IMG/VR virus record: IMGVR_UViG_2585427750_000024
Reading direction: 5' to 3' (one strand)
Source of the DNA: a virus
Taxonomy: Duplodnaviria; Heunggongvirae; Uroviricota; Caudoviricetes
DNA: 34,727 nucleotides
In this document: piece by piece, positions 1 to 30,790 of the stretch
How positions within the stretch are numbered: the stretch's first letter is position 1
How the letters are laid out: every line of letters begins with the position of its first letter
The notes under the pieces: model-generated
The model's input: the letters and a program-made list of their open reading frames with translations, nothing else
The model's database searches: none
Told to the model about the DNA's origin: nothing
Translations under genes and position numbers: made by a program

Positions 1-1002
1 TTACCCTCTATTGTCAAAAGGGTTCAATTCAACAGCAGCCTCTAAATGACCTGGAGCAAAATGCGCATAACGCATAGTCATTTTTATATCGCTATGCCCC
101 AGTATTTTTTGCAACACAAGAATATTTCCGCCCCGCATCATAAAATGACTGGCAAACGTGTGACGTAGCACATGAGTTAATTGCCCATCAGGAAGCTCGA
201 TCTTCGCTCTCTTAATTGCAGCGTCAAAAGCCTCATAACATGGTGAAAATAGCGCTCCTCGTTTTTGAGGAAGCATAGCCTGCAATTGAGGTGAAATCGG
301 TACAGTGCGGTTCTTCTTTCCTTTAGTTTTAACAAATGTGATTCGACCGGGCAGTACTTGAGATTGCTTTAATCCTTCAGCTTCACTCCACCGAGCACCA
401 GTCGCAAGCCCAATACGGACAACAACCCCCAAATCTTTATTCCGTGACTCATCACACGCAATCAGAAGGCGTTCAATCTCATCTACATACAGAAACGCCA
501 GTTCCTTTTCTTCCTCACGAAACTTGCGAATACCAGTCAGGGGGTTTTCACCAGACCACTCCCCAAGGCGCTTCAGTTCGGCAAAAACAGCATGTAGATA
601 TGACTGCTCGCGATTAACGGTTGCTTCACTAAGTTTTTTCTTCCCCTTGGGATTCCATTCTCCTGATAGCCTTCTTTCCCGATAAGTAGCAAACATATTT
701 TTGTCAAACTGAGAAGCAAATGGATCCCCCAGCCTGGAACAAATCGCCTCAAGTTTGACTTTGCGCTCTGCACCAGAGGACAAGGTTTTACCGTACATCT
801 CAAACCAACGAGCAATCAACTCAGAAAGACGAGGACCAGAACCATCTTGAAACTCGTCTCCAACTCTACTATTCATTAAACGGCGCTCATAAGAGAGCGC
901 CTCACTTTTTGTCGCAAACTGTTTACGAATGCGTTTTCCCGATGCCCCGTAGGGATAACATTCGCAAAGCCATTTACCTGATGGAATCTTACGAACCGAC
1001 AT
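1..1002 (-). CDS. int: Tyrosine recombinase / phage integrase, P2-type
   Basis: 333 aa; C-terminal catalytic region (HVLRHTFASHFMMRGGNILVLQKILGHSDIKMTMRYAHFAPGHLE) matches the R..HxxR..Y integrase signature and recalled P2 Int; stop codon TAA at 1-3 on minus strand; sits at prophage end next to the immunity region. Confidence 0.9.
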   Translation of the reverse strand: MSVRKIPSGKWLCECYPYGASGKRIRKQFATKSEALSYERRLMNSRVGDEFQDGSGPRLSELIARWFEMYGKTLSSGAERKVKLEAICSRLGDPFASQFDKNMFATYRERRLSGEWNPKGKKKLSEATVNREQSYLHAVFAELKRLGEWSGENPLTGIRKFREEEKELAFLYVDEIERLLIACDESRNKDLGVVVRIGLATGARWSEAEGLKQSQVLPGRITFVKTKGKKNRTVPISPQLQAMLPQKRGALFSPCYEAFDAAIKRAKIELPDGQLTHVLRHTFASHFMMRGGNILVLQKILGHSDIKMTMRYAHFAPGHLEAAVELNPFDNRG

Positions 1003-9866: not shown

Positions 9867-10266
9867 CTGCACAATAGTGCACAAGTTTGCACAATTTTTT
9901 TGAACGACTTTTTACCCTTCCGGCCCGCATGGCGGCTGGATCCGTCAAGGATCCGTGCGTGCACAAAAAAACGCGCTTTTTCTGCGCGCAGGTGACGGGG
10001 GAACAGCCCGCGTTTCAGGGGGTAAATAGCATCCCCTGAACGATGTCGCAGCGACACAACAGAATGGCTGTATTTCTCACGCTGAGCGTGAAAAAGACGT
10101 GAGGGCTTTTGATTTGATGGGTGGCAGATAAGGCCGTCAAAATCGCACTGAGGCGGCGAGAACATGCAGTCAACGCGGTGGGATTGCGTAAGAGTCTGAC
10201 CGCCGATGATGACAATAAGCAGAAAAGCGTCGTGAAATTATCTGATTGATACAGGAGCTGGAGAGT

Positions 10267-10317: not shown

Positions 10318-11364
10318 TCAGGATGTGGGCTGGGTATCTAGCAGTGCGTAAGGGTTAAAGCGGATCACCTCTTCGCCAAGCCAGTCATTGATGTGCTTCA
10401 TGGCCTCCATGACGGGCATCAGCTCGTTAATTGCGTAAACCCGCGCGGCCTTCTCCACATCACCAAACGCACTTTTTTCGCCCGGCATCGCCCCCATCAG
10501 TTGCGGCGGAACGCGGTGCGCAGCCAGCACATCATCACGGGATGCCGCCTTAACATTCATGAACTCATCCTTTGCAGTGATCTGCTGGAACGGCAAAATT
10601 TGCACACCTTCTTTGCCCCCGTTGGGCGCATGGATGAGTACGTTTTTAAACGCACCACCACCACGCGCGCCCTGTAACGTTTCTTTCAGGGAGTCCATGC
10701 TTTCGCGGTTTACCTGCGCTGCACCGATGTAGATGATGCACCCGGCGTGGGATCCGTTGTCGTAGTACAGTTTTCTGAACATGTCCGCCGAATGAGAAAG
10801 GCTGGCCGAGAGTAATGCGCCAAGATATTCCGGCATGCCGTAGATTTCCTGGTTAATATCCGGATTCATCAGGTGGCACACTTTGCCAGGGCGAAACTGG
10901 AACGCGTCCTTGCCATCCTGCACATACCACCATGATTCAAGATCGCTTCCGCGTCGCATGTATTTCGCCAGGGCGTGCCGTAATTTAAGCGGTTCGCCGA
11001 GCATATTGCTTCTAAGCTCAAGGAATGCGTTACCGAACACAAACCAGTCCAGCGCCAGCGCCGAGAAATCCTGCCGGGAAAGCAGCGGGTGCGGGATGTA
11101 GCAACCGAGTAATACATTGCGCTTAAAGTAAAGCGCAGACTGATGCCAGGACGTTTGCCGGGCTGCTCTTGCCAGACCGTACCAGTCCACCGGGGTTTCA
11201 TACCACCGTCCGTTATCAGCACAGTACATATTGTCCAGCAGGTCATGCCCGGTCAGGCGATAAGGACCATCAAATGTGAATGCACTGAGCGATGATTCTT
11301 TCCTGAGCGCATCAGCGAGATCAATGCGTGAACTCATGCGCACTTTTTTATTTTTTCTGCTCAT
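10318..11364 (-). CDS. Q: Portal protein, P2 gpQ-like
   Basis: 348 aa; size and position match P2 Q, adjacent to and co-oriented with the terminase gene. Confidence 0.85.
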   Translation of the reverse strand: MSRKNKKVRMSSRIDLADALRKESSLSAFTFDGPYRLTGHDLLDNMYCADNGRWYETPVDWYGLARAARQTSWHQSALYFKRNVLLGCYIPHPLLSRQDFSALALDWFVFGNAFLELRSNMLGEPLKLRHALAKYMRRGSDLESWWYVQDGKDAFQFRPGKVCHLMNPDINQEIYGMPEYLGALLSASLSHSADMFRKLYYDNGSHAGCIIYIGAAQVNRESMDSLKETLQGARGGGAFKNVLIHAPNGGKEGVQILPFQQITAKDEFMNVKAASRDDVLAAHRVPPQLMGAMPGEKSAFGDVEKAARVYAINELMPVMEAMKHINDWLGEEVIRFNPYALLDTQPTS

Positions 11365-13115
11365 CAGAACTCCATAACCGTGAAACGCTCGTTTTCTCCT
11401 TCGCCGCCAATCGGTTCGTTAATGACAGCAAGCATGGTTGCCCACGCAAGGTCGCCGTGGCTGATCCCCCTCGCGCGGTCCGTTTCGTAAGTGATAAAGC
11501 CGCCCGGTGTTTTCACCTTACGCACGGCGTTAAAGGCCGCGACCAGCTCGCGTTCGGCGCGATCGTATTCCCACCGCCCGGCACGCATTATTTGCAGCAT
11601 TTTCAGTACCAGCGACCGTTTTGATGACAGCGTGAAGGTGTACGGAATAGCAGCAGGGAAAAACCGTTTCACTATCTGATAAACAGCCTCCCCGTTCCCG
11701 CCCGTCACATCAATGCCGATGTGTTCCACGTTGTAGCGATACGTGAACTCTTCAATGACTCTGGCCTGTTCTTCAAACTCCAGCCCCTGAACGCGTCGCG
11801 TCTCCACCGTTCGAAAACGGCCACCAGGAACAGCCGGAGGAACCACCACGGACACAGCGCCGCTGTCGCCGTTGCCACTACTGCCGTTTGCGTCATACCC
11901 AATCCATACCGGACGATTCCCCATCGGGCGGGGAGCAAAAGGTTTCCAGTCTTTCCAGTCGTCGTATCCGTCAACACCGCAGCCAATCAGGATATTCAGG
12001 TTAAATGCCGATTCCCCTTCGCGGACAAACTCACACATATAGAGATTGAGGAACTCGTCTTCGGTGTTTTCATCACGAATTTCGTCGATATCGGTGTGTT
12101 TCCAGCCGTGATTGACCACATCTTCCAGCGTGACAATTTGCCGCCACGTCCGGTCAGGGCAGATAAGCCCGTTATGCAGCGTTTTCCAGTCCACAGAAAA
12201 ACGCTGGCGTTTATGCGTGGCCTTTTTCTCGTTCCAGCGGTCGCCGTTCCAGTAGGCGTATGCCTCGTGCGTTTCGGTGGATGGCGTGGAGAAGTAGGTG
12301 CGCCGCAGTCCGCTGAGGGTTGCCATAGCGCCAGCCACCTTGCGCAGTTCAGCAAAGCGACTGACCCAGAAAAATTCATCAAAATAAAAATTGCCCGTAT
12401 AGGACTGTGCCGACGCAGCAGAAGTGCCGAGAAAATGCAGCTCTGCGCCGTTGGAGAGGATGATTTTATCGCCCCCTTTCAGCTCCACATCAACTTCAGC
12501 CGCGGCCTTCTGAATAATGCTTTTAAACTGGAACGCCTGACGACGCGACGCAGACAAAAAAATCTGGTTACGCTGGTAAGGTTGCGCCACATCGTCACGC
12601 AGCGCCATCAGCAGAGCTTCCTGTGCAAAATACCAGGTCGCCCCAATCTGTCGGGATTTCAGGATCATCCTGTTACGTATCCCGGCTTCCCTGCAAAGGG
12701 TCAGGGAGTCAAACCAGCCCCGCTGATGCCACTCCAGCCTGCTGATGATTTTTTCCCGCAGTGCGGCAATCTGTTCCGGCGTGAAATGATTTTTGAGTTT
12801 TTTCGCCCGGCCTTTCTTTCCTGTGACCGTCGCATCCGGCTGGCCATCATGCAGTTTTTTAAGCTGCCGGGTCAGCAGGTCTATTTCCTTAAAGTCACCG
12901 CCTGTTTTATTCTGTTTTTCAGTAAGCTGGATGAGGCGCGCATCGATGGACTGCGTGACACGCTGCACGGGTGGCGTTTCATCCCACTGGTCGCGTTTTT
13001 TCCACGCATAAATCGTGTTCGGGTTTATTCCCATCAGACGTGATATTTCTGCGGGCGGATAACCCTGCCAGTAAAGTTGCCGCGCACGCTGGCGCACAAA
13101 AGCGTCCTGAATCAT
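11364..13115 (-). CDS. P: Terminase large (ATPase) subunit, P2 gpP-like
   Basis: 583 aa; N-terminal HTH-like MIQDAFVRQRARQLYWQGYPPAEISRLMGINPNTIYAWKKRDQWDE; P2 P-Q leftward operon arrangement. Confidence 0.9.
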   Translation of the reverse strand: MIQDAFVRQRARQLYWQGYPPAEISRLMGINPNTIYAWKKRDQWDETPPVQRVTQSIDARLIQLTEKQNKTGGDFKEIDLLTRQLKKLHDGQPDATVTGKKGRAKKLKNHFTPEQIAALREKIISRLEWHQRGWFDSLTLCREAGIRNRMILKSRQIGATWYFAQEALLMALRDDVAQPYQRNQIFLSASRRQAFQFKSIIQKAAAEVDVELKGGDKIILSNGAELHFLGTSAASAQSYTGNFYFDEFFWVSRFAELRKVAGAMATLSGLRRTYFSTPSTETHEAYAYWNGDRWNEKKATHKRQRFSVDWKTLHNGLICPDRTWRQIVTLEDVVNHGWKHTDIDEIRDENTEDEFLNLYMCEFVREGESAFNLNILIGCGVDGYDDWKDWKPFAPRPMGNRPVWIGYDANGSSGNGDSGAVSVVVPPAVPGGRFRTVETRRVQGLEFEEQARVIEEFTYRYNVEHIGIDVTGGNGEAVYQIVKRFFPAAIPYTFTLSSKRSLVLKMLQIMRAGRWEYDRAERELVAAFNAVRKVKTPGGFITYETDRARGISHGDLAWATMLAVINEPIGGEGENERFTVMEF

Positions 13116-13236
13116 TGCTCCCCCTGAGTAATTACAGGAAGATTACCCGCGCGCGAAACTGTTCTCCTTAACCCCCTGTTCTGGCCGTTTTCTTACAACA
13201 AAATCCCTTTGTATCAGCCTGTTACGCTTTGCCATC
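13116..13236. promoter_or_regulatory. Divergent late-promoter region between P and O
   Basis: Intergenic between divergently transcribed late operons; contains TAACCCCCT (13169-13177) and ACAACAAAA (13195-13203), both also present upstream of D; no TGT-N12-ACA found by eye. Confidence 0.4.
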
Positions 13237-14106
13237 ATGACTGAAGAACCAGTCAGAGGGGCAAAAACTATGGCTAATGAAAAAAAGACATCCCGCAAAA
13301 AGTTTCGCGTGGCTGTCTCCGGATCAACTGTTGATGGCCGCGAAATCAGCCCGGTACATCTGCATGAAGCCGCCGAGAACTTCAACCCGGATGTTTACGC
13401 TGCCCGCGTGAACGTTGAGCACTATCTCTCGCCATGCCCGTCAAGCGAATTTTCCGCAATGGGCGATGTCACCGCGCTGAGTACGGAAGATATTACGGAA
13501 GGCCCGCTGGCCGGACGTACTGCGCTGTATGCAGAAATCGAACCGACCGAGCGCATGAAGCAGCTTGTCGCTGACGGCAAGAAAATCTATTCCAGTATCG
13601 AACTGCACCCGCAGTTCTCCGTTAACGGGCGTGCCTATCTGGTCGGGCTGGCGATGACCGACACCCCGGCAAGCCTGGGCACTGAGCGCCTGAAATTCAC
13701 GGCACAGCAGCGTCAGGCGGTGATGACGTTCAACAGTATCCAGGGTGAAGCACCGCTTATCTCCGAAGCCATCGAGTCTGAAATCATCGAAATGGCAGAA
13801 CAACGCCAGGAAGAAGGCACCCAGTGGTTTAACCGCGTAATGGGGATTATTGGTCGTGGCCGCAAAGCGGATGACGCCAGTTTCTCCCGTATTCAGGAAG
13901 CGGTGGAAGGCGTTGCAACATCACAGGCCGACATTATCGACCGTTTTAATGTGCTGGAAACCCGCCATCAGCAGGACCGCCAGAAAATCACGTCACTGAC
14001 CACAGAGCTGACAGCACTGAAGGAAAAACTGCGCACGCAGGACGGCGATCCGCAGAACCGCTTCACCGCAACGGGCGCAGCCTCCGACCAGCTGGCTGAC
14101 TTCTGA
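13237..14106 (+). CDS. O: Capsid scaffolding protein, P2 gpO-like (possible true start ~13270)
   Basis: 289 aa; N-terminal FRVAVSGSTVDGREISPVHLHEAAENFNPDVYAARVNVEHY resembles recalled P2 O; precedes the major capsid gene. Confidence 0.85.
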   Translation: MTEEPVRGAKTMANEKKTSRKKFRVAVSGSTVDGREISPVHLHEAAENFNPDVYAARVNVEHYLSPCPSSEFSAMGDVTALSTEDITEGPLAGRTALYAEIEPTERMKQLVADGKKIYSSIELHPQFSVNGRAYLVGLAMTDTPASLGTERLKFTAQQRQAVMTFNSIQGEAPLISEAIESEIIEMAEQRQEEGTQWFNRVMGIIGRGRKADDASFSRIQEAVEGVATSQADIIDRFNVLETRHQQDRQKITSLTTELTALKEKLRTQDGDPQNRFTATGAASDQLADF

Positions 14107-14129
14107 TAAGACAAAGGAGCAAATTTTTT

Positions 14130-15182
14130 ATGAATCTGGTGATGTCAGATATTACCCGCAACAAGCTGGGTTGCTATATGGCGCAGCAGGCGTCGCTTAA
14201 CAATATCCCGGTATCTGCACTGGTATCGCGATTTACCGTGGAACCCGCGGTGCAGCAGCGTTTTGAAAACGCCTCAAAGGAAAGTACCGAATTTACGAAA
14301 AGAATTAACGTGATCGGCGTGACCGACCAGAAAGGCGAAAAAATCCTCCCGGACACCACCGGGCCAATTGCGCGCACGAATAGCAGTTATGACGGCATCA
14401 AACGCCGTAACCCGAATAACGTGATCGATATGAAGTCTCGTCAGTACCAGTGCGAACAGGTGAACTACGATACCTTTATTTCGTACCCACAGCTTGATAC
14501 CTGGGCGGCCCACAGCGATTTTCAGTCCCGTATCAGTACACAGATCGCCCGGCAGGTAGCGCTTGATCGCATCATGATTGGCTTTAACGGCACATCCCAC
14601 GCCTACGAGTCTGATTTTCACACCAACAAGCTGCTTCAGGACGTTAACGTGGGCTGGCTGGAGCACATCAGAACCGATGCCAGCGAGCGCGTAATGAATG
14701 ACGTGACGCTGACCTCCCGCAACATGGACAACACTGTGGCGCACGCGGGTAAGTATGCGAATGCCGATGCTCTGGTACAGGATGCGCGCTCATCCCTGCT
14801 GGATGAATGGCACAAGGAAGCTGACGACCTCGTGGTGATTATGGGGCGCAACCTGTTTAACTCGCTGCGTCTGCCCGTGCTGAACAGCATCAGCGGCCAG
14901 AATCCCAATGCGGAATTACTTGCCGGGCAGCTCATCCTGTCATCGCGCACCATTGGCGGGCTGGGCGTGTTCCTTGCGCCGTTCTTCCCGGATGCAACGA
15001 TGCTTATCACCTCGTTCAACAACCTGTCGATTTACTGGCAGAAAGGTTCAATGCGTCGTCTGATGAAAGACGAGCCGGAATACAACCGCATCGCCACCTA
15101 CCAGTCCATCAATGACGCTTATGTCGTTGAAGACTATGGCAAGTGCGCGATGGTCACTGGCCTGAAGTTCGCCGACAGCTAA
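14130..15182 (+). CDS. N: Major capsid protein, P2 gpN-like
   Basis: 350 aa; FTVEP...RINVIGVTDQKGEKI resembles P2 N; position O-N-M. Confidence 0.9.
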   Translation: MNLVMSDITRNKLGCYMAQQASLNNIPVSALVSRFTVEPAVQQRFENASKESTEFTKRINVIGVTDQKGEKILPDTTGPIARTNSSYDGIKRRNPNNVIDMKSRQYQCEQVNYDTFISYPQLDTWAAHSDFQSRISTQIARQVALDRIMIGFNGTSHAYESDFHTNKLLQDVNVGWLEHIRTDASERVMNDVTLTSRNMDNTVAHAGKYANADALVQDARSSLLDEWHKEADDLVVIMGRNLFNSLRLPVLNSISGQNPNAELLAGQLILSSRTIGGLGVFLAPFFPDATMLITSFNNLSIYWQKGSMRRLMKDEPEYNRIATYQSINDAYVVEDYGKCAMVTGLKFADS

Positions 15183-15191
15183 TCAACTCAC

Positions 15192-15210
15192 GGCGGGCAT
15201 CATGCCCGCC
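15192..15210 (+). other. Hairpin GGCGGGC-ATCAT-GCCCGCC between N and M
   Basis: 7-bp GC-rich inverted repeat read directly; no U-tract; possible processing/attenuation structure. Confidence 0.3.
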
Positions 15211-15227
15211 TGTAACGGAGAGAAAAA

Positions 15228-16028
15228 ATGATTACTCCTGCACAACAACACTGGCAGAACGTGATGGCACAGCGCGCAGGCCGGGCGAATGAAGGTGTGG
15301 ACCACGCCGCGTGTACCGCGCATGAAGAAGTGCTGTATCGTCTGCGTCTGGCACAGGCCAGGCTAAAGGCCATACAGGCCAGAAGCGCGAAAGCCGCCAT
15401 CAAAAAAGAGTTGTTGCCGGACTTTTCCGGCTGGATTGAGGGAACGCTGGAGGCTGACGGCGGGCAACAGGACGAAGTAATTGCCACGCTGATGGTGTGG
15501 GCGATTGACTGCGGCGATCTTCCACTGGCGCTGCGTATTGGTGCATATGTGGTCCGTCACAACCTCATCATGCCGGATAACTTTGGCCGTACTGCTGCCA
15601 CGGTACTGACCGAAGAAATCTGCAACCCGGTACTGACGCAGGCTGGGACGGATGCCGACGCGGATTTATCCGCCTTTATCGAACCACTGGACACACTTTG
15701 GGAAATTGTCGCCAACCAGGACATTCCGGACGAAGTGCGCGCCAAATTATGCAAGGCGTGTGCCTTTGCCCGTCGTGGCCTGACCGATGCAGACAACATG
15801 GCCTCATCACTGAAGCTGCTGCGCGAAGCGATGCACCTGAACCCGAACGCAGGTGTGAAACGCGAGATTGCAACCCTTTCCCGCGCCCTGAAAAAAGCCG
15901 ATTCCGCAGCCGAACCAGAAGACGCCAGCGCACAGCAGGCGCAGGACGAAAGCAGCAAAAATAAAAAGACAACGCGGAAGCCTGCAACACGAAAAACCAC
16001 CGCGACGCAGAAGGCAAAGCGCGGTTAA
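15228..16028 (+). CDS. M: Terminase small (endonuclease) subunit, P2 gpM-like
   Basis: 266 aa; position and sequence character match P2 M; basic C-terminal tail. Confidence 0.85.
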   Translation: MITPAQQHWQNVMAQRAGRANEGVDHAACTAHEEVLYRLRLAQARLKAIQARSAKAAIKKELLPDFSGWIEGTLEADGGQQDEVIATLMVWAIDCGDLPLALRIGAYVVRHNLIMPDNFGRTAATVLTEEICNPVLTQAGTDADADLSAFIEPLDTLWEIVANQDIPDEVRAKLCKACAFARRGLTDADNMASSLKLLREAMHLNPNAGVKREIATLSRALKKADSAAEPEDASAQQAQDESSKNKKTTRKPATRKTTATQKAKRG

Positions 16029-16044
16029 CGACTGACCCCGTCAG

Positions 16045-16115
16045 CGGGCGGCGTGCGCGGTGTTCCGGTTTGACTCCGTGACCGTTTACACCGCGCACCC
16101 ACCGCCCGATTTTTT
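16045..16115 (+). terminator. Long imperfect hairpin followed by T6 between M and L (intrinsic terminator/attenuator)
   Basis: Arms CGGGCGGCGTGCGCGGTG (16045-16062) and CACCGCGCACCCACCGCCCG (16089-16108), then TTTTTT (16110-16115), RBS and the L start. Confidence 0.5.
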
Positions 16116-16120
16116 CAGGA

Positions 16121-16624
16121 GTGAACCCCATGAGTATGGTTGCCAGAACTAACCCCGGCCCCGCAGAGGACGACATCACCGATACCGATGATGGCGACAC
16201 TCGCATTTCAGCGGGTGCATTCTGGCCGGATATTGTGCTGCGTGAGCTGCGTCTGGCGGTACGACTGCCGGGCCGCGTGACCACCTCCCGCCTGCTGCAT
16301 ACCGCCACCGGGGCCATAGCACACGTTACCCGCGAGCTGGAAGCATGGCAGCAGGAACAACAGGCGGCTGGCTATCAGACGCTGGCCGATGTTCCGGCCC
16401 CTGTAATTAACGGAGAAAGCGTCAATCTCTGGCACTGGCGCAATGCTGTTTATACCGCCACACGCGCCCTGATTCTGGAGCGTTACCGCGATGCGGACAC
16501 AACGGACAAGGGCGACCGCCGGGCGGACGCACTGGATATACAGACATCGGATTTGTGGCGCGATGTGAGCTGGGCCATCTCTGACATTCTGGGACGACCG
16601 CGAATGTTTGCGGAGCTGTGCTGA
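16121..16624 (+). CDS. L: Head completion/stabilisation protein, P2 gpL-like
   Basis: 167 aa; position after M and before X; size as P2 L. Confidence 0.8.
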   Translation: MNPMSMVARTNPGPAEDDITDTDDGDTRISAGAFWPDIVLRELRLAVRLPGRVTTSRLLHTATGAIAHVTRELEAWQQEQQAAGYQTLADVPAPVINGESVNLWHWRNAVYTATRALILERYRDADTTDKGDRRADALDIQTSDLWRDVSWAISDILGRPRMFAELC

Positions 16625-16824
16625 TGAAAGTGAAGGCACTGGAAGGCGACACCGTGGATTCGCTCTGTTTCCGGTACTACGGCACGACACGGGGCGTCAC
16701 CGAAAAGGTGCTGGATGCCAACCCCGGACTCTGTCAGCAGGTATTTCTGGACGCCGGGCAGGAAGTGGAGATGCCGGAGCCGGAGAAGAAGAAACGAGAA
16801 ATGATTCAGTTGTGGGGGGAGTAG
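16618..16824 (+). CDS. X: Tail protein X-like
   Basis: 68 aa; size and position match P2 X; overlaps the L stop. Confidence 0.65.
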   Translation: MLMKVKALEGDTVDSLCFRYYGTTRGVTEKVLDANPGLCQQVFLDAGQEVEMPEPEKKKREMIQLWGE

Positions 16825-16826
16825 CA

Positions 16827-17150
16827 GTGAGCACCATTCAAACAGGGATCACAGAGCAGGTTATTGCGTGGCTCTTTGACCACCTGCCAACGGTGTATGC
16901 AGTAGGCGCGGCTGTCAGCATTTCCGCGCTGATGAGTCTTTATGACGGACGAACACTGGTTCAGACCGTAACGGGATCGCTGGCGTGCGGCGTTCTTGCC
17001 ATGGCCGTGGCCGGGTCGCTGCGCTTCTTCGGGATCCCTGAGGATGCAGTGACGTTTTTTGGTGCCTCAATCGGTTTTATGGGCGCAGAGAAAGCACGCG
17101 ACAAGGTTATTGCAATATTTGATCGCAGGGTGAAGGAGAGGAACGAATGA
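16827..17150 (+). CDS. Holin (GTG start)
   Basis: 107 aa from GTG at 16827 preceded by GGGGGGAG; 2-3 predicted TM helices; first gene of the lysis cassette. Track ORF 16608..17150 is the same frame extended upstream. Confidence 0.6.
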   Translation: MSTIQTGITEQVIAWLFDHLPTVYAVGAAVSISALMSLYDGRTLVQTVTGSLACGVLAMAVAGSLRFFGIPEDAVTFFGASIGFMGAEKARDKVIAIFDRRVKERNE

Positions 17151-17539
17151 GCAACACATTTAAATTCAGCAGCCGAAGCGAAAAGAATTTGCAGGGTGTA
17201 AATCCTGATCTGGTGAAAGTGACCCGACGGGCGCTGGAAATCTCGGAAGTGGATTTTGGTATCACCGAAGGATTGCGCAGTCGTTATCGTCAGAAGCAGC
17301 TCGTGACCACAGGCAAGAGCCAGACCATGAACAGTCGCCATCTCAAAGGGCATGCCGTGGATGTTGTGGCTTATGTTGGCAGCCAGGTGTCATGGGAATG
17401 GCCGCTGTACGAAAAAATCGCAGCAGCATTCAGACAGGCCAGCCGGGAACTGAATATTCCGGTGGAATGGGGCGGCGACTGGAAGACCCTGAAAGACGGA
17501 CCGCATTTTCAGTTACCACACGGAGCCTATCCGGCATGA
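17147..17539 (+). CDS. Endolysin, peptidase M15-type (L-Ala-D-Glu/D-Ala-D-Ala metallopeptidase family)
   Basis: 130 aa; SRHLKGHAVDV and EWGGDW motifs typical of Zn-dependent M15/VanY-like peptidases; between holin and spanins. Confidence 0.7.
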   Translation: MSNTFKFSSRSEKNLQGVNPDLVKVTRRALEISEVDFGITEGLRSRYRQKQLVTTGKSQTMNSRHLKGHAVDVVAYVGSQVSWEWPLYEKIAAAFRQASRELNIPVEWGGDWKTLKDGPHFQLPHGAYPA

Positions 17540-17943
17540 AGCTCTGGCCCACGCTTGGCGTCGCTTTCCTTCTGATTGCCGCATGGGGAACATCCATGCG
17601 TCTGTCGTGGTCGCTGGGCCGGGAGAACGCCAGAAACGAAGCGCAGGCCAGCACCCTGAAAAGTACCGTCGACACACTGAATATCATCAGCGCCGGGGTA
17701 CAGGATATGCAGCAGGTGCTGGCTCAACTCCGCGCGGACAATCAGCAACGCAATCAGGACGGAGAGGTAAGACGTGAACAGCTACGCAACGATATTGCAA
17801 AAGATGAATGCGCCCACGCTTTGCCTGACGCTCGTTTTACTGACAGGTTGCGCAGGCACGCAGAACGCGCCACGGCCAGCGCCGTCAGTCCGGCTTATAC
17901 CGCAGACGCTGACCATGCCGGTAACGCCTCCCCCCTTCCCTGA
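17536..17943 (+). CDS. i-spanin (Rz/LysB-like)
   Basis: ATG 17536 overlaps the endolysin stop; N-terminal TM (MKLWPTLGVAFLLIAAWG) then charged coiled-coil-like region; o-spanin embedded in +1 frame. Confidence 0.6.
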   Translation: MKLWPTLGVAFLLIAAWGTSMRLSWSLGRENARNEAQASTLKSTVDTLNIISAGVQDMQQVLAQLRADNQQRNQDGEVRREQLRNDIAKDECAHALPDARFTDRLRRHAERATASAVSPAYTADADHAGNASPLP

Positions 17944-18085
17944 CCAACCCACATGGGGAAACCTCGGAATATGGGGCGACCGCCTTCTGGATGCACTGGA
18001 AACCTGTAACGCGGATAAACGGGCCATTGCTGAACTGGATAAGAGAATAGCCGAACTGACACACCAGACGGGAGTAACACAATGA
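17804..18085 (+). CDS. o-spanin lipoprotein (Rz1/LysC-like), embedded/overlapping the i-spanin
   Basis: Lipobox LVLLTGCAG, Pro-rich mature region; track start GTG 17774, ATG 17804 more likely. Confidence 0.55.
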   Translation: MNAPTLCLTLVLLTGCAGTQNAPRPAPSVRLIPQTLTMPVTPPPFPDQPTWGNLGIWGDRLLDALETCNADKRAIAELDKRIAELTHQTGVTQ

Positions 18086-19959
18086 CCAGTAAGAACTTTG
18101 CACTGATTACAGCCATGACACAGGCTGAACTGACTCAAAAGGTGAATGAACATCTTGCGAAAGGGTGGCATCTTCAGGGGGAGACGCGGGTTGCCTACGA
18201 ACCCGGCACCCCGTGGTATCTAATGCAGGCAATGGTGGCCGATGGCACTACAGACATCTCACCTGATTCCCCCCAGCACGGCAGCGTGCCGGAGTGGTAT
18301 TACGTGGTGGTACTTGCTGGTCAATCCAATGCCATGTCATATGGTGAGGGAATGCCGCTGCCGGATTCTTACGATGCGCCCCACCCACGCATTAAGCAAC
18401 TGGCCCGTCGCAACACAGTGACTCCCGGTGGTAAAGCATGCGCATTTAACGACATCATTCCGGCAGATCACTGCCTGCATGATGTTCAGGATATGAGCGC
18501 ACTGAATCACCCGAATGCAGACCTGAGCAAAGGGCAGTATGGCTGTGTCGGACAGGGCTTGCATATTGCCAAACGCCTGTTGCCTTACATTCCACAGAAT
18601 GCCGGGATTTTACTGGTTCCATGCTGTCGTGGTGGTTCGGCATTCACCCAGGGCGCGGAGGGGACATTCAGCGAGTCCACAGGAGCCAGTCAGGATTCGG
18701 CTCGCTGGGGGGTGGGTAAACCTTTATATCAGGACCTGATTTTGCGCACGAAGGCCGCATTGCAGAAAAACCCAAAAAACATGCTGCTGGCCGTATGCTG
18801 GATGCAGGGCGAATTTGACATGAGCGCCGCTACGTACTCACAGCAACCTCCGCTGTTTGCGGCCATGCTGAAACAGTTTCGTGCGGACATTACCGAGTTT
18901 AACACGCAGTGTCATGGAGGCAGAGCGGCAAGTGTGCCATGGATTTGTGGTGACACGACGTATTACTGGAAAAACACCTACGGCACGCAGTACGACACCA
19001 TTTACGGGGCGTACAAAAACAGGGAGAGCGACAACGTTTTCTTTGTGCCATTCCTGACCGATGGTAGTGGCAACAATACCTCCACCAACGCACCAACGGA
19101 AGATCCGGATGCTGCAAGTGAGGGATATTACGGTTCGGCATCCCGAACGAACAAAAACTGGGTATCATCAAATCGCCAGACGCATTTCAGTTCATGGGCG
19201 CGCAGGAGCATTATTCCGGATCGTATGGCAACCGCTATTCTGAACGTAGCCGGTCGCACCTTAGCCTTCATCAGTGGTAAGGCACCGGAAATCAAACCCT
19301 CGCCCGGCGGCAACACGCCATCGGGTCCGTCTGCAGATACGTCCGTTCGCACAATCTCCCTGCTGCCGGCAGCCGGAGAGGCTGCTGCGCAGGGCTGGAG
19401 CATTAAGGATGGCGGAATTCAGTTGTCAGATGGTGTATTTAAGATCACCAAGCAGAGCAATAAAACCTGGTCCCTGACGCATCCGGTGGATGACGCAATT
19501 ACCCTGCTGACACAGGGCGGCAGACTGACCTGTAAGTTCCGCCTGTCAGGCGCACTGACCAACAATCAGTTCGGGCTGGGGATTTATCTGTATACGGATG
19601 CTCCCGTTCCTGATGGTGTGGCGATGACGGGTACCGGTAATCCGTTCCTGATGTCGTACTTCACTCAGACCACTGACGGCAGAGTGAATCTGATGCATCA
19701 CAGGAAAGCCGGAAACACGAAGCTGGGGGAGTTCGGCGATTACGGTAACGACTGGCAGACGCTGGAGCTGGTGTTCACCGCCAGCAGTGCCACGGTTACT
19801 CCGAAACTGAATGGAGTGGCTGGCCCGGCATTCCAGGTCATAAAAGACAGTCTGACACTGGGGCTGAATGCACTGACGCTGACGGATATTACCAAAAATG
19901 CAACGTATGGCGTTGAGATAGAAAGTCTGGTGCTGGAAATAAATAGTCCTGCAGCGTAA
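18082..19959 (+). CDS. Prophage NanS-p-like sialate O-acetylesterase (DUF1737 N-domain + SASA/SGNH esterase domain)
   Basis: 625 aa; N-terminal MTSKNFALITAMTQAELTQKVNEHLAKGWHLQGE (DUF1737-like) then VVVLAGQSNAMSYGEG (GQSN motif); start overlaps o-spanin stop; no counterpart in P2. Confidence 0.65.
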   Translation: MTSKNFALITAMTQAELTQKVNEHLAKGWHLQGETRVAYEPGTPWYLMQAMVADGTTDISPDSPQHGSVPEWYYVVVLAGQSNAMSYGEGMPLPDSYDAPHPRIKQLARRNTVTPGGKACAFNDIIPADHCLHDVQDMSALNHPNADLSKGQYGCVGQGLHIAKRLLPYIPQNAGILLVPCCRGGSAFTQGAEGTFSESTGASQDSARWGVGKPLYQDLILRTKAALQKNPKNMLLAVCWMQGEFDMSAATYSQQPPLFAAMLKQFRADITEFNTQCHGGRAASVPWICGDTTYYWKNTYGTQYDTIYGAYKNRESDNVFFVPFLTDGSGNNTSTNAPTEDPDAASEGYYGSASRTNKNWVSSNRQTHFSSWARRSIIPDRMATAILNVAGRTLAFISGKAPEIKPSPGGNTPSGPSADTSVRTISLLPAAGEAAAQGWSIKDGGIQLSDGVFKITKQSNKTWSLTHPVDDAITLLTQGGRLTCKFRLSGALTNNQFGLGIYLYTDAPVPDGVAMTGTGNPFLMSYFTQTTDGRVNLMHHRKAGNTKLGEFGDYGNDWQTLELVFTASSATVTPKLNGVAGPAFQVIKDSLTLGLNALTLTDITKNATYGVEIESLVLEINSPAA

Positions 19960-19982
19960 GGAAGAACAGGAGAGCAAAACAG

Positions 19983-20450
19983 ATGCTTAAGACAAACAGC
20001 CTCCGGAAGGGCATGATTCATGGGTGTCGCTGGTGTCAGGCCAACCCGGAAAAATTCACCATTTTCGTGGAGAGCGGCAACATTGAAACGACCGGAGAAA
20101 CGCCCTCGTTTGTTTACCGCTATCAGATGGTGATGTTTGTCATGGATTACGCCGGGGAGCTGGACGACCTCACGCTGCCGCTACTGGCGTGGTTATCCGA
20201 AAATCAGCCGCAATTGTTGCTTAATCCGGAGCGTAATCAGGACATCAAATTCTCCGCCGTTATCAATGACGATGACAGCGCCGATCTCCTGTTTACGCTC
20301 CCTCTGCGGGAACGCGTTCGCATCACGCGCAGCAGTCAGGGGGCACCGCAGGCAGAACACCTGCAGGAGCCAAAACCCCGTCTGCCATCTTCCGAAGGCG
20401 ACTGGTCGCATGTATTCCAGGATGTGACGTGGGGTGAAAGCGATGGATAA
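19983..20450 (+). CDS. R: Tail completion protein, P2 gpR-like
   Basis: 155 aa; position before S and V; size as P2 R. Confidence 0.75.
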   Translation: MLKTNSLRKGMIHGCRWCQANPEKFTIFVESGNIETTGETPSFVYRYQMVMFVMDYAGELDDLTLPLLAWLSENQPQLLLNPERNQDIKFSAVINDDDSADLLFTLPLRERVRITRSSQGAPQAEHLQEPKPRLPSSEGDWSHVFQDVTWGESDG

Positions 20451-21078
20451 GGCATTCACCCGCGTGGATGAAACCTTTGAGGCTATCCGCGACAGCCTGA
20501 ATCAGCAGGCCATCAATAACATCGCCAGAAAGCTGGCACAGGATTTACGCCGCGCCCAGCAGGCGCGTATCCGGTCACAGAAAGCGCCGGACGGGACCGC
20601 GTGGACACCACGCAGACGCCGCGCAACCCGGATACAGGAGCGCATTCGCTTTATCTGGAATAACGAAGCACGCACGCTGAAAAACTGGCATCACGACACG
20701 GGGAAATACGGGCGAACCATTACCGGGTGGGATGAGGATAAAAACAATATCCGCACGTTTTACCGGGATGACATCGACCGCTTTCTGGAAATACGCACCC
20801 GGCGCATCAACCAGGACAGCACAAAGCGCGTCCCCATGTTCGTAAAACTGCGCACCGCCCGCTACCTGAAAGCCCGTGCAGATGCTTCCGGTGTGACGGT
20901 GGGTTACAGCGGCGTGGCCGCACGTATTGCCCGCGTTCATCAGTTCGGTGAGCGCGATCAGGTTGCGCCGGGCATTTTCACCGATTACCCGGTACGTGAG
21001 CTGTTGGGCATCAGTCAGGCAGATGAACGCCTGATTTATAACACGGTGCTGGGCCGGATTGCGGAGGCTGTACGGTGA
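20434..21078 (+). CDS. S: Tail completion / virion morphogenesis protein, P2 gpS-like with internal insertion
   Basis: 214 aa; ARIRSQKAPDGTAWTPRRR, MFVKLRTARYLKA, AARIARVHQFGERD, YPVRELLGISQADERLI match recalled P2 S; ~65 aa extra in the middle. Confidence 0.7.
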   Translation: MKAMDKAFTRVDETFEAIRDSLNQQAINNIARKLAQDLRRAQQARIRSQKAPDGTAWTPRRRRATRIQERIRFIWNNEARTLKNWHHDTGKYGRTITGWDEDKNNIRTFYRDDIDRFLEIRTRRINQDSTKRVPMFVKLRTARYLKARADASGVTVGYSGVAARIARVHQFGERDQVAPGIFTDYPVRELLGISQADERLIYNTVLGRIAEAVR

Positions 21079-21656
21079 GCGCAGAACTCATGCGACTGCT
21101 GAGCAACATCATCCGCACTGGGATCATCTCTGAAGTTGATGAGAAGTCCTGGTGCGTGCGCGTTCGCAGCGGCGAACTGGAAACAGGCTGGTTGCGCTGG
21201 AACACCACGCGCGCGGGAGCCTTCAATGTGTGGCTGCCGCCATCACCCGGCGAACAGGTGGTAATTGCCTGCATTGGCGGCAACCCGGAAACCGCCATGA
21301 TAATTGGCAGCCTGTGGAGTGATGCCAATCCGGCCCCCGGCAAAAGCCTGAAAGAAATCGTGGTCAGCGCGCCGGATGGCGCGGTGTTCCGCTACGACGC
21401 GGACGCAGGCGCACTGAGCGCCAGCGGCATGAAAACGGCCACCCTGCAGGCATCCGTCAGTGTGACACTGGACACGCCCGTCGTGGAATGCACAGACCTT
21501 CTGAGAACGGCGACGCTTGACGTCACAAAAGGGGGAAAGATGAGCGGCAATATCACGCACAGCGGCGGCAATTTCACCTCAAACGGCATCACAGTGCATA
21601 CGCATAAACACGGTGGCGTTAAAGGTGGCAGCGATTCGACAGGAGGCCCGCAGTGA
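21075..21656 (+). CDS. V: Baseplate central spike protein, P2 gpV-like
   Basis: 193 aa (GTG start); LDTPVVECTDLL, TKGGKMSGNITHSGGNFTSNGITVHTHKHGG match recalled P2 V. Confidence 0.85.
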   Translation: MSAELMRLLSNIIRTGIISEVDEKSWCVRVRSGELETGWLRWNTTRAGAFNVWLPPSPGEQVVIACIGGNPETAMIIGSLWSDANPAPGKSLKEIVVSAPDGAVFRYDADAGALSASGMKTATLQASVSVTLDTPVVECTDLLRTATLDVTKGGKMSGNITHSGGNFTSNGITVHTHKHGGVKGGSDSTGGPQ

Positions 21657-22003
21657 CAACCCGCTACACAGGAATGAACCCGGACGGAACGGGAAACCTG
21701 AACGATATGGAGCATCTGAAACAGTCAGTCAGGGACATCCTGACCACCCCGCTGGCAAGCCGGGTTATGCGACGGGAATATGGCAGCCTTGTGCCCGATT
21801 TAATTGACGAACCCATGAATAACACCACTCGTCTGCAATGCATGAGTGCTGCCGTGATTGCGCTGACACGATGGGAACCCCGCATTGCCCTGGACGCCAT
21901 CGACGTTGTCTGGAAGGCAGGAGGCCGCGCCGGGGTGACGCTGTCGGGCACTGTCATGCAGACCATGCAGAATGTTGAATTAACCATCACGCTGAGGGAG
22001 TAA
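21653..22003 (+). CDS. W: Baseplate wedge protein, P2 gpW-like (gp25/lysozyme-like fold family)
   Basis: 116 aa; position and size; GMNPDGTGNLNDMEHLKQSVRDILTTPLASRVMRREYGS typical. Confidence 0.8.
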   Translation: MTTRYTGMNPDGTGNLNDMEHLKQSVRDILTTPLASRVMRREYGSLVPDLIDEPMNNTTRLQCMSAAVIALTRWEPRIALDAIDVVWKAGGRAGVTLSGTVMQTMQNVELTITLRE

Positions 22004-22006
22004 ATC

Positions 22007-22903
22007 ATGCCTGCCGTTGACCTTTCCCAGTTACCGGAACCCGCCATCATCGCGGAGCCTGACTTTGAGGCAATTCTGGCTGACACAAAGGCCATGATGA
22101 TTGCGTCCTATCCTGCCGAACAGCGTGAAGCCGTCTCCGCCGCGCTGGAGCTGGAATCGGAACCCCTGAACGTTATCGCCCAGACAACAGCGTTTCGTGA
22201 AATGCTGTTACGCCAGCGGGTCAATGAGGGGGCACGCGCCTGCATGTTAAGCCACAGCGCCGGGACAGACCTGGACAACCTCGCGGGCAATATGAACACA
22301 AAGCGCCTGACCATCACTCCGGCAACGGATACCACCGACGCAGTGATGGAAAGTGACACCTCGCTGAGACTGCGGGCGCAGCGGGCGTACGATGGCCTGA
22401 GTGTTGCTGGCCCGTCAGGTGCATACGAGTATTTTGCCCGCAGCGCCAGCGGTCTGGTGCGTGATGCGCGGGCTATCAGTCCGTCTCCGGCAAATGTGAC
22501 GGTTTCCATCCTGTCCACTGAAGGCGACGGCACAGCAACGGAGGCGTTGCTTAATACCGTTCGCGCCGTTCTGAATGCAGAGGATACCCGCCCGGTGGCC
22601 GACCGCCTGACGGTACAGAGCGCCAGAATCGTGACATGGCGGCTGAATGCAAAACTGTACTTTTACCCCGGCCCGGAATCCGAACCTATTCTGGCGGCGG
22701 CTGAATCGTCGTTCAGGAAGTGGCTGGCTGAGCAGGGGCTTATCGGTCAGGACGTGGCGTTGTCCGCCATTGCTGCCGCACTGCATGTGCACGGTGTGCA
22801 ACGCGTGGAGATAATCGAACCCACACAGAATATGGCCATCAGCGACATACAGGCGGCGCGCTGTGAGTCGTTCACCATCAGCGAAGGTGGGCGCAATGAG
22901 TAA
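22007..22903 (+). CDS. J: Baseplate assembly protein, P2 gpJ-like
   Basis: 298 aa; position between W and I. Confidence 0.85.
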   Translation: MPAVDLSQLPEPAIIAEPDFEAILADTKAMMIASYPAEQREAVSAALELESEPLNVIAQTTAFREMLLRQRVNEGARACMLSHSAGTDLDNLAGNMNTKRLTITPATDTTDAVMESDTSLRLRAQRAYDGLSVAGPSGAYEYFARSASGLVRDARAISPSPANVTVSILSTEGDGTATEALLNTVRAVLNAEDTRPVADRLTVQSARIVTWRLNAKLYFYPGPESEPILAAAESSFRKWLAEQGLIGQDVALSAIAAALHVHGVQRVEIIEPTQNMAISDIQAARCESFTISEGGRNE

Positions 22904-23426
22904 TTCACTGTTACCACCATCAGCCAGCAGTTTCATGCGTTGTGCCGAAGCTGTCGGAACGCGCATTACAGACATCCCGGTAGACCTCAACACGCTGTGG
23001 TCGCCGGACACCTGCCCGGTGCACCTGCTGCCTTATCTCGCCTGGGCATTTTCCGTTGACCGCTGGGATCGCAACTGGCCGGAAGAGACAAAACGACAGG
23101 TGATTCGTGATGCATGGCTGATACACCGACACAAAGGGACCATCAGCGCACTGCGCAGGGCCATTGAGCCGCTGGGATACCTCATTCGCGTGTCTGAGTG
23201 GTGGGAGTTCGGCGGAGAACCGGGAACATTTACCGTTGAAGTCGGCACACTGGACAGTGGCGTGACGGAGGAAATGTATCTGGAAATGGAGCGGTTGATT
23301 GCTGATGCCCGTCCGGTCAGCCGCCACATGACAGGGCTGAATATCATTCAGGAAATTCCGGGGGATATTTTTGCAGCGGCGGCAACTCATGACGGTGAAG
23401 TTATTACCATTTATCCGGACGATTAA
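22896..23426 (+). CDS. I: Tail protein, P2 gpI-like
   Basis: ATG 22896 overlaps the J stop (ATGAGTAA); track gives 22863 in the same frame; size ~176 aa like P2 I. Confidence 0.75.
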
Positions 23427-23428
23427 GC

Positions 23429-25561
23429 ATGAGTACCACAACACGAAAATTTAAAACCGTTATCACCGATACAGGTGCCAAAAAATTAGCTCAGGCAGCC
23501 GCGCCAGATGGTAAGCCTGTCCGCCTGACTCATATGGCCGTGGGCGACGGTGGCGGCGCGTTGCCCACACCAGACAGTAAGCAGACCCGTCTGGTGCATG
23601 AGGTGTGGCGACACACTGTTAATCGCGTCATCCTGGACGCAACACATCAGAACCGCATTATTGCGGAGCTGGTTATTCCTCCAGAAACGGGCGGATTCTG
23701 GATCCGGGAAATTGGTGTGTTTGATGAGCACGGCGATTTAATCGCGGTGGGCAATACTGCCGAAAGTTACAAGCCAGCCGTTGCCGAAGGGTCCGGACGT
23801 GCACAAACATTTCGCACCATTCTGACCGTATCCAGCACTGCCACTGTGGCGCTTACCGTGGATAACACCATGGTGATGGCCACAGTGGATTACGTGGATA
23901 ACAAACTGAAAGAGCATGAACAGTCACGATGTCACCCGGATGCCTCGCTGACCGCAAAAGGCTTTGTTCAACTCAGTAGCGCCACTAACAGCGATTCTGA
24001 AACGCTGGCTGCAACGCCGAAAGCGGTTAAGGTCGCGTATGATCTTGCTAACGGAAAATATACAGCGCAGGATGCCACAACAGCGCGAAAAGGCCTTGTC
24101 CAGCTTAGTAGTGCAACCAACAGTACATCTGAAACGCTGGCGGCAACATCAAATGCAGTAAAAGCTGCCTATGACAATGCTGAAAAACGTCTGCAGAAAG
24201 CTAAGAATGGTGAGGATATCTCTGATAAAGACACCTTTACGAAAAATATCGGTGCCTGCCGTGCATATAGTGCAGAGCTGAATATTGGTGGAGATAGTGA
24301 AGCATGGACAACTGCGCAGTTGATTTTTTGGCTAGAGAGTCAGGGGGCATTTAACCATCCTTACTGGATGTGCAAAGGCTCATGGGCTTATGCAAATAAT
24401 AAGGTCATTACAGATACAGGTTGCGGAAGTATTTGTCTTGCAGGTGCTGTTGTGGAAGTTATTGGCACCCGCGGCGCAATGACCATACGCATTACCACAC
24501 CGAGTACATCCAGCGGTGAAGGCATCCCTAATGCTCAATTTACTTATATTAATCATGGTGATGCTTATGCTCCTGGCTGGCGAAGGGACTATAACTCCAG
24601 GAATAAGCCAACAGCATCAGAGATCGGGGCGTTACCGTCAGATGGGACAGCAGTATCGTCAGTTAATCTGGCTTCAAAAGGTCGGCTGACCGCCCTGACA
24701 GATAATATGCAGGGGGCCACAGGTCTGGAGTTATACGAGGCGTATAACAACGGATATCCAACAACGTATGGAAATATCATTCACCTGAAAGGGATGACAG
24801 CCGTTGGCGAAGGCGAATTACTCATCGGCTGGAGGGGTATAAGCGGTGCTCATGCTCCGGCATTTATTCGTTCACGACGGGATACGCCCGACGCAAACTG
24901 GTCGCCGTGGGCGCAGCTTTACACCTCGGCTCATCCTCCTGAAGAGTTTTATCCAGTCGGTGCACCGATTCCGTGGCCATCAGATACCGTTCCGTCTGGT
25001 TATGCCCTGATGCAGGGGCAGACTTTTGACAAATCTGCATACCCGAAACTTGCAGTCGCTTATCCGTCAGGCGTTATTCCTGATATGCGTGGCTGGACGA
25101 TTAAGGGCAAGCCCGGCAGTGGTCGTGCCGTATTGTCTCAGGAACAGGACGGCATTAAATCGCACACCCACAGCGCCAGCGCATCCAGTACGGATTTGGG
25201 GACGAAAACCACATCGTCGTTTGATTACGGTACTAAAACGACCAGTTCATTTGATTACGGCACAAAAACTACGAATAGCGCTGGAAATCATTCACACAAT
25301 ATACCTGTTGGTCACACTGGCGCGGGGAATGGTGTATCAGCCGGTTATAACGCTGCGTTAGGTACTGGTACCACGTCGAGCGCAGGCGAGCATGCTCACA
25401 ATGTATATATCGGTGCCCATAACCACACTATCGGCATTGGTGCTCATGCCCATTCTGTCATTATTGGTCCCCACGGACACACCATCACCGTTAACGCTAC
25501 GGGTAACGAAGAAAACACCGTAAAAAACATCGCATTTAACTATATTGTGAGGCTTGCATAA
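23429..25561 (+). CDS. H: Tail fibre protein, P2 gpH-like
   Basis: 710 aa; conserved N-terminus ([37 protein letters not shown]...[40 protein letters not shown]) matches recalled P2 H; divergent C-terminus with peptide repeats and His-x-His boxes. Confidence 0.85.
25199..25273 (+). repeat. Tandem 30-bp (10-aa [10 protein letters not shown]) repeat, ~2.5 copies, inside H
   Basis: Read directly; copies differ mainly at synonymous positions. Confidence 0.6.
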
Positions 25562-26139
25562 TGACATTCAGAATGAGTGAACACTCACGGACCATAAAAA
25601 TTTATAATCTACTGACCGGAACCAATGAGTTTATTGGTGAAGGTGATGCATACATTCCACCTCATACAGGTCTGCCTGCAAACAGTACCGATATTGCCCC
25701 GCCAGATATTCCGGCTGGCTTCGTGGCCGTTTTCAACAGTGATGAGGCATCGTGGCATCTCGTTGAAGACCATCGGGGTAAAACGGTTTATGACGTGGCA
25801 TCAGGGGACTCGTTATTTATTTCTGAACTCGGTCCATTACCGGAAAATGTTACCTGGTTGTCGCCGTATGGAGAGTATCAGAAGTGGAACGGCACATCCT
25901 GGGTGAAAGATGCAGAAGCAGAAAAACTGTTTCGGATAAGGGAGGCGGAAGAAACAAAAAACAGCCTGATGCAGGTAGCCAGCGAGCATATTGCGCCACT
26001 TCAGGATGCCGTAGATTTGGATATTGCAACGGAGGAAGAGGCATCGTTACTGGCTGCATGGAAGACATACCGGGTATTGTTGAATCGTGTTAATACAGCG
26101 GTAGCAGCGGATGTTGAGTGGCCAGTCGCCCCACAATAA
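25561..26139 (+). CDS. G: Tail fibre assembly chaperone, P2 gpG-like
   Basis: 192 aa; C-terminus ...[23 protein letters not shown] resembles the recalled P2 G end; start overlaps H stop (ATAATGA). Confidence 0.75.
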
Positions 26140-27406: not shown

Positions 27407-27412
27407 GACTCC

Positions 27413-30736: not shown

Positions 30737-30790
30737 CAGGAAACTCCTTTCAGTCAGAGGCGACGCACTGCGCCGCCTGCATATTACTTA

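Follow-up and report, generated by a model that had tools for sequence, protein, structure and literature searches.

Candidate Ogr/Delta-type operators between the divergent late operons of a P88-type prophage of the P2 family

Ogr, B and Delta are the established activators of late transcription in P2- and 186-type systems, and it is by analogy with them that mechanism is discussed here. The textbook Ogr-type dyad of P2-like late promoters is TGT-N12-ACA, and an Ogr/Delta-dependent late promoter has the centre of this dyad about 55 bp upstream of the transcription start, together with a weak core that lacks a -35 consensus. Such promoters precede the structural operons (P/Q, O to S, tail) and depend on a phage-encoded C4 zinc-finger activator of the Ogr/Delta family, which binds the dyad and acts via the alpha subunit of RNA polymerase. 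We took the sites and starts of P2 and 186 from their GenBank annotation (NC_001895 and NC_001317, respectively). The annotated sites read TGTTGT-N12-CCA at P2 PO/PP, GGTTGT-N12-CCA at P2 PF, TGTTGT-N12-CCA at 186 p12/pV and AGTTGT-N12-CCA at 186 pJ, and none of the annotated sites of either phage is an exact TGT-N12-ACA: four are one mismatch away from it, and P2 PV is two mismatches away. In both P2 and 186, a single site lies between the divergent terminase and scaffold promoters, at a distance of 55.5-56.5 bp from each annotated start.

The DNA analysed here, referred to as the window, is the whole 34,727-nucleotide stretch of IMG/VR record IMGVR_UViG_2585427750_000024, and its sequence identifies it as a P88-type prophage (genus Xuanwuvirus, Peduoviridae) within the P2 family. 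Its gene order begins at the left end with int (1-1002, minus strand), continues through a repressor, Arc-like and Cox-like genes, replication gene A and ParM/ParR, and reaches portal gene Q and then terminase gene P (11364-13115, minus strand). A rightward late operon from O to G, encoding scaffold to tail fibre (13270-26139, plus strand), is followed by an inverted tail module U-T-E-FII-FI (26912-32487, minus strand), in which the sheath gene FI occupies 31303-32487, and by gene D (32645-33745, plus strand). The two late regions considered here are the divergent intergenic regions P/O (region 1) and FI/D (region 2), the latter lying between the start codons of FI at 32487 and D at 32645. The P88 RefSeq annotation and an alignment to P2 gpO indicate that scaffold gene O most likely starts at 13270 rather than 13237, which makes region 1 extend from 13116 to 13269. 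Both late regions are 94-99% identical to those of P88, 520873, 503458, Chuche, PhiR44_2 and Citrobacter Shae_phiSM; the papers on P88 and PhiSM contain nothing on late promoters. In the Shae_phiSM record (OR565851.1), product names are displaced by one gene, with D labelled as ogr and the sheath gene labelled as D.

The earlier note on this DNA reported no recognisable TGT-N12-ACA dyad in either late region, and proposed that two 9-mers common to both, TAACCCCCT and ACAACAAAA, bind a late activator that differs from the P2 Ogr paradigm. A scan of the whole window agrees that exact TGT-N12-ACA is absent from both regions. The window holds two exact matches (10044 and 34119, against a mean of 8.4 in shuffled sequence), and both are probably due to chance: that at 10044-10061 lies between an Ead-like gene and the presumed cos/portal end, and that at 34119-34136 is 9 bp upstream of the start of a cargo gene (TGTTTTTGTTATAGAACA), and so is too close to it to be a -55 site. 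The statement that there is no recognisable dyad holds for exact matches only, however, as the scan located one dyad with a single mismatch in each late region, TCT-N12-ACA on the plus strand at 13180-13197 and 32567-32584. The minus strand of each region contains TTTTGTTGT-N12-AGAAC, that is TGT-N12-AGA, and ACAACAAAA is simply the reverse complement of TTTTGTTGT, which holds the TGTTGT half and a T-run. Operator 1 (13178-13203, minus strand; TTTTGTTGT AAGAAAACGGCC AGAAC, dyad centre 13188.5) is placed where the P operon (terminase/portal) and the O operon (scaffold to tail fibre) diverge, with its ACAACAAAA half at 13195-13203 on the plus strand and its second half-site, GTTCT, at 13178-13182 on the same strand, this being the reverse complement of AGAAC with G replacing the C of the textbook ACA. 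Operator 2 (32565-32590, minus strand; TTTTGTTGT CGCCGTGGCGGG AGAAC, dyad centre 32575.5) is placed between gene D on the plus strand and the tail operon (FI, FII, E, T, U) that diverges from it on the minus strand, with its ACAACAAAA half at 32582-32590 on the plus strand. As the P2 and 186 sites are equally inexact, the missing exact match is uninformative, and the sites in the window are as good as those of the paradigm itself. We consider it highly likely that each late region contains one Ogr/Delta-type operator midway between the divergent operons, of which ACAACAAAA would be the better-conserved half-site. The apparent departure from the P2 paradigm vanishes once the other strand is read and the comparison is made with actual P2 and 186 sites. 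Searches for exact TGT-N12-ACA miss genuine sites, even those of P2, and a better key is TGTTGT-N12-NNA combined with position.

The resemblance to P2 extends beyond the TGTTGT half, the N12 spacing and a partial dyad that departs from TGT-N12-ACA at a single position. In P2 too the site is common to the divergent P and O promoters, a -10-like hexamer lies 44-50 nt from the dyad centre without a -35 consensus, and ogr is encoded downstream of D, as it is in the lineage of the window. The differences are that the right half is AGA(A/C)C in the clade of the window and CCA(T/A)C in P2, and that the P-O operator is flipped, with TGTTGT adjoining O in the window but P in P2. P2 also has D as the last gene of the F operon, whereas in the window the tail operon is inverted, so that FI and D diverge and operator 2 is common to both. 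Phage 186 likewise has one B site between the divergent p12 and pV promoters, at the distances that are predicted for the window, with TGTTGT or AGTTGT as its half-site, but its right half is CCAG rather than AGAAC, its tail operon has the P2-type orientation, and it has an additional promoter, p32. P2 has a separate PV promoter, in contrast to the window, where S and V overlap and where we found no third late promoter equivalent to PV or p32 and no motif match in the 16-21 kb interval; the overlap of S and V is consistent with this result. The right half may also be read in another register, with a GCCA located 2 bp nearer to TGTTGT than in P2, and the exact contacts may therefore differ.

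One-mismatch dyads carry no weight alone, since a scan for them is non-specific (147 matches to TGT-N12-ACA in the window against 161 expected), and the case is made by the extended half-site, position and conservation. The 24-bp pattern of the clade, TTGTTGT-N8-GGNNAGANC, is matched by operator 1 with no mismatches and by operator 2 with one, the next best match in the window having two. Only three matches to GTTGT-N12-[AC][CG]A are present in the window, namely both operators and one site within gene T. An independent matrix, trained on the P2, 186, 3LV2017 and KSP20 sites with no P88-clade sequence included, ranked the operators joint second and third of about 69,000 window positions, at 13.5 bits, a score within the 12.9-16.8 bits that the P2 and 186 training sites obtain on the same matrix. 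The top match of this matrix, at 9181-9159, was rejected as a late site, as it is an inverted repeat (GTTATT...AATAAC) at the stop codon of the parR-like gene, followed by a hairpin.

Among close relatives, the operators are almost invariant. Protein-based locus searches of IMG/VR returned 159 relatives, 80 for F-D and 79 for P-O, all of them 97-100% identical and as such useful for shallow polymorphism rather than depth. In this set, ACAACAAAA is invariant (80/80 at F-D and 79/79 at P-O) and TTCT-N12-ACAACAAAA is retained in all 80 F-D sequences and in 78 of the 79 P-O sequences, the latter figure applying equally to the longer GTTCT-N12-ACAACAAAA at P-O, whereas no other stretch of either region is as polymorphic as the N12 spacer. 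Depth is provided by phiT5282H (Enterobacter) and ST16-OXA48phi5.4 (Klebsiella; hereafter ST16), which have 68-73% DNA identity and have the inverted tail module in common with the window. Both carry TTTTGTTGT-N8-GG(C/G)CAGACC, again TGT-N12-AGA, in both late regions, so that in these phages, as in the window, operators of the form TTTTGTTGT-N8-GG(C/G)CAGA(A/C)C occur in P-O and F-D with the same -10 offsets, and the phage's own two late regions share ACAACAAAA; both phages have ogr downstream of D. They differ from the window in having AGACC instead of AGAAC and in lacking TAACCCCCT, and their sites are likewise unannotated. Klebsiella 3LV2017 and Serratia KSP20 have the same gene arrangement and operator position as the window, and at this place have the perfect dyad GTTGT-N12-ACAAC, an exact TGT-N12-ACA, which shows that the AGA of the window is a single-base variant of the same element. 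Operator 1 is conserved in phiT5282H, ST16 and 3LV2017, and operator 2 in these three and additionally in KSP20. An exact search of IMG/VR with TTTTGTTGT-N8-GGCCAGA matched at least 120 contigs; among the matches listed there are 20 sequence clusters, of which about half (some ten) are P2-like late regions of distinct lineages, and the rest are coincidences within coding sequence. The sites in the window are very probably ordinary, unannotated members of the family of Ogr-dependent late promoters, with a one-base-variant right half that is common to their clade.

The observation from which the proposal of a different activator arose is itself sound. TAACCCCCT is present at 13169-13177 and 32596-32604, both on the plus strand, and has exactly these two exact copies in the window. 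ACAACAAAA is present in exact copies at 13195-13203 and 32582-32590, also on the plus strand, with a third copy on the minus strand at 29949-29957, within tape-measure gene T. With two and three copies respectively, neither 9-mer is common throughout the genome. Of the two outcomes that the note named as refuting its proposal, the discovery of overlooked Ogr-type dyads by a scan did occur, and genome-wide commonness of the 9-mers did not. Random pieces of the window of 121 bp and 157 bp have at least one same-strand 9-mer in common in 8.1% of cases and at least two in 0.27%, and shuffled copies of the two regions give 5.8% and 0.16%. The pair of shared 9-mers is thus beyond chance, as had been suspected (p about 0.003), and a single shared 9-mer would not be. 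This improbability, the missing exact TGT-N12-ACA in both late regions, and the missing Ogr-like zinc-finger ORF in the window would all fit a phage without Ogr-type dyads in which TAACCCCCT and ACAACAAAA are two elements for a non-Ogr late activator. We nevertheless regard this explanation as very improbable. ACAACAAAA is the TGTTGT half of a one-mismatch dyad at canonical spacing and position, the P2 and 186 sites are no more exact than those in the window, and TAACCCCCT is not conserved. In addition, TAACCCCCT precedes ACAACAAAA by 26 nt in region 1 but follows it by 14 nt in region 2, and such a change in order and spacing is incompatible with a composite site.

The remaining argument for another activator is the composition of the window itself, in which neither a six-frame scan for CxxC...CxxxxC nor Pfam and PHROGs searches of ten small early ORFs revealed an Ogr-like ORF. 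The inference of a non-Ogr activator from an ogr-less window was rejected, as ogr is located past the position of the window's end in P88, 500465-2 and an O26:H11 prophage. In P88, an unannotated ORF of 86 aa (MFRCPLCG...CNNLEC) lies downstream of D at 34476-34736, and the same gene is present in 500465-2. The matching prophage of E. coli O26:H11 11368 shows 100% identity to the window from D to a point within the cargo gene, and its genes here run from D through an intact cargo gene of the YecA family to one annotated as an ogr/Delta-like zinc finger, with hok after it. The protein of this lineage matches Pfam Ogr_Delta (PF04606) with E = 5e-14 and shares 42% identity with P2 Ogr across the finger, in which it has a two-residue insertion (CX2C-X24-CX4C); it is 86 aa in length, compared with 72 aa and an X22 finger in P2. 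In the window, the interval 34145-34727 downstream of D comprises a SEC-C/YecA-family cargo gene, cut at about 34420, and the IS that cuts it, of which the transposase C-terminus (rve_3) occupies 34431-34697 on the minus strand. The right end of the window falls within this IS, before the position at which ogr is expected, and this accounts for the window's lack of an Ogr-like ORF; by comparison with its relatives, the Ogr/Delta zinc-finger gene of this lineage would lie just beyond that end. Together with the TGTTGT half at N12 from AGAAC, the presence of this gene in the lineage largely refutes the claim that the late activator differs from the P2 Ogr paradigm.

The proposal that both 9-mers are elements for a late activator divides accordingly in its outcome. 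ACAACAAAA, as a half-site, very probably belongs to the binding element of the late activator. TAACCCCCT, which is polymorphic, absent from deeper relatives and inconsistently placed, does not share this support, and for the same reasons we take it as most likely a coincidental, lineage-specific C-run that flanks both operators and stands outside the Ogr mechanism. Copy 1 (13169-13177, plus strand) abuts the AGAAC half-site on its P side, at about -44 to -36 of the predicted PP and antisense to it; 68 of 79 relatives retain this copy intact, and TAACCCTCT is the common variant. Copy 2 (32596-32604, plus strand) flanks operator 2 towards D, in the sense orientation and at about -35 to -27 relative to the predicted PD, and is intact in 61 of 80 relatives, the variants including TAACCCACT, TAACCCCGC and TAACCCCTT among others. 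The late regions of phiT5282H, ST16-OXA48phi5.4 and 3LV2017 contain no TAACCCCCT with up to one mismatch, and copy 2 has no counterpart at the equivalent position in these three phages or in KSP20. Two other readings, TAACCCCCT as a -35 element and TAACCCCCT as a continuation of the right half-site, were rejected because its offsets and orientations are inconsistent.

A different role for TAACCCCCT would be that of a real auxiliary promoter element beside the Ogr operator, for example as a C/G-run at -35 to -45 of PD and PP that tunes contacts of RNA polymerase or its alpha subunit, or that binds a host factor. Even with ACAACAAAA explained, one further shared 9-mer is expected by chance in only 6-8% of cases, and GCAGTAACC is invariant in 80 relatives at F-D. 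C/G-runs are also found near similar positions in other phages (AAAGGGGG at PP of phiT5282H, CCCC at PD of KSP20 and ST16, and CCGGGA at PO and PF of P2), and region 2 has a second C-run, CACCCCTG, which adjoins GTTCT in a mirror image of region 1. Against an auxiliary function, the last three bases of TAACCCCCT are free to vary, being altered in 19 of 80 and 11 of 79 close relatives, the sequence is absent at up to one mismatch from the late regions of the three deeper phages named above, and its two copies are on opposite sides of the dyad and differ in both offset and orientation. On balance an auxiliary element seems unlikely, and coincidence remains our preferred reading of TAACCCCCT. We note that CTGTTCT occurs as a direct repeat in region 1, with copies 17 bp apart at 13159-13165 and 13176-13182. 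TAACCCCCT bridges the gap of this repeat and overlaps the start of its second copy, which contains the GTTCT half-site of operator 1; no TGTTGT accompanies the first copy, and the base ahead of its GTTCT (13160) is polymorphic, C or T, in relatives. GTTCTCC is common to both late regions.

The geometry of the surrounding sequence fits that of Ogr-dependent promoters. On a positional reading, each of the four flanks of the two operators has a -10-like hexamer at 44-50 nt from the dyad centre, and when the comparison was carried outward to 24 promoters in seven phages, 20 of them from the six others, a hexamer was found at 44-50 nt in every case. The -10 elements and start sites of the four window promoters were placed by position, by analogy with these phages, and are therefore given as predictions. 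PP would have its -10, TAATCT, at 13140-13145 (minus strand; 44-49 nt from the centre) and start near 13133; this offset equals that of the P2 PP hexamer TAGCCT, and in P2 the PP start is annotated at 55.5 nt from the dyad centre. PO would have CATCAT at 13233-13238 (plus strand; 45-50 nt) and start near 13245, ahead of the O start codon (13270), and CATCAT or GATGAT is found at an equal offset in phiT5282H, ST16 and 3LV2017. PF would have GATGAT at 32527-32532 (minus strand; 44-49 nt) and start near 32520; GAnnAT is found at an equal offset in phiT5282H, ST16, 3LV2017 and KSP20, as well as in P2 PF and 186 pJ, the annotated starts of which are 57-58 nt from the dyad centre. PD would have GACCAT at 32619-32624 (plus strand; 44-49 nt) and start near 32631, with AACCAT, AATCAT or GATCCT at an equal offset in 3LV2017, KSP20, ST16 and phiT5282H, and its hexamer appears to be the weakest of the four predicted -10 elements. 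A scan for consensus sigma-70 promoters gave no match in either late region, as is expected for activator-dependent promoters. A further feature of the predicted PP is a GC block, CCCGCGCGCG, at 13146-13155, where CGCGCGCG directly precedes the -10 element (AGATTACCCGCGCGCG). The CGCGCGCG block is retained at PP in phiT5282H, ST16 and 3LV2017 and is found at PD in phiT5282H, ST16, 3LV2017 and KSP20, P2 PP has CGCGGGGCGCG at a similar place, and in region 2 the same GC words occur inverted (CGCGCGTAATCT) at 32541-32552 on the PF side, as an alternating GC tract in the promoter spacer.

What is observed is the sequence of the sites, their position and conservation, and the occurrence of ogr in the lineage; binding, start sites and activation are predicted here from the P2/186 paradigm, and the following sequence of events would be expected. 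Ogr would be produced once the lytic programme and replication are underway, and this zinc-finger protein would bind each dyad, centred about 55-57 bp upstream of the promoter on each side. From a position of about -55, it would contact or recruit host RNA polymerase at weak promoters that possess a -10 element only. One operator could in this way fire two promoters, operator 1 serving PP and PO and operator 2 serving PF and PD, and the two operators would drive four late units, namely P-Q, O to G, FI to U, and a unit that begins with D and has the cargo gene and ogr further downstream. For Xuanwuvirus-type prophages, this is the first explicit outline of how the late promoters are likely to be arranged, with two bidirectional operators and four promoters, and prophages of this type are common in pathogenic E. 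coli, including O26 and O103.

Within this layout, the P88/phiT5282H/ST16 clade has a consistently asymmetric operator, TTTTGTTGT-N8-GGCCAGA(A/C)C, in which the right half is AGA as against ACA or CCA elsewhere. The Ogr proteins of the same clade are longer, with the two-residue insertion in the zinc-finger loop found in the P88 lineage. It is possible, although we put it forward only tentatively and think it the less probable outcome, that the AGA operator and longer Ogr of this clade reflect a shifted DNA specificity, and that operator 2 forms a feedback loop with the ogr gene downstream of it. If so, the shift in specificity would divide P2-like helpers and P4-like satellites into separate groups for cross-activation. 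In addition, a single operator common to D and the inverted tail operon, with ogr lying past D, could create a positive-feedback loop that is absent from P2.

Two further departures from P88 were observed within the late part of the window. Between the tail-fibre genes and the tail module, an ORF of 201 aa (26183-26788, minus strand) has a weak, sub-threshold match to hexapeptide transferases and occupies the position at which P88 has alternative fibre genes and a DNA invertase, such that the fibre-switch region appears to have been replaced in this prophage. An ORF of 625 aa (18082-19959, plus strand), which is missing from P88, lies within the late O operon, flanked by the lysis genes and tail gene R, and contains DUF1737, SASA (sialate O-acetylesterase, NanS-like) and DUF6645 domains. 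This NanS-like esterase gene would be a moron carried in an Ogr-driven operon, and its expression upon induction would follow.
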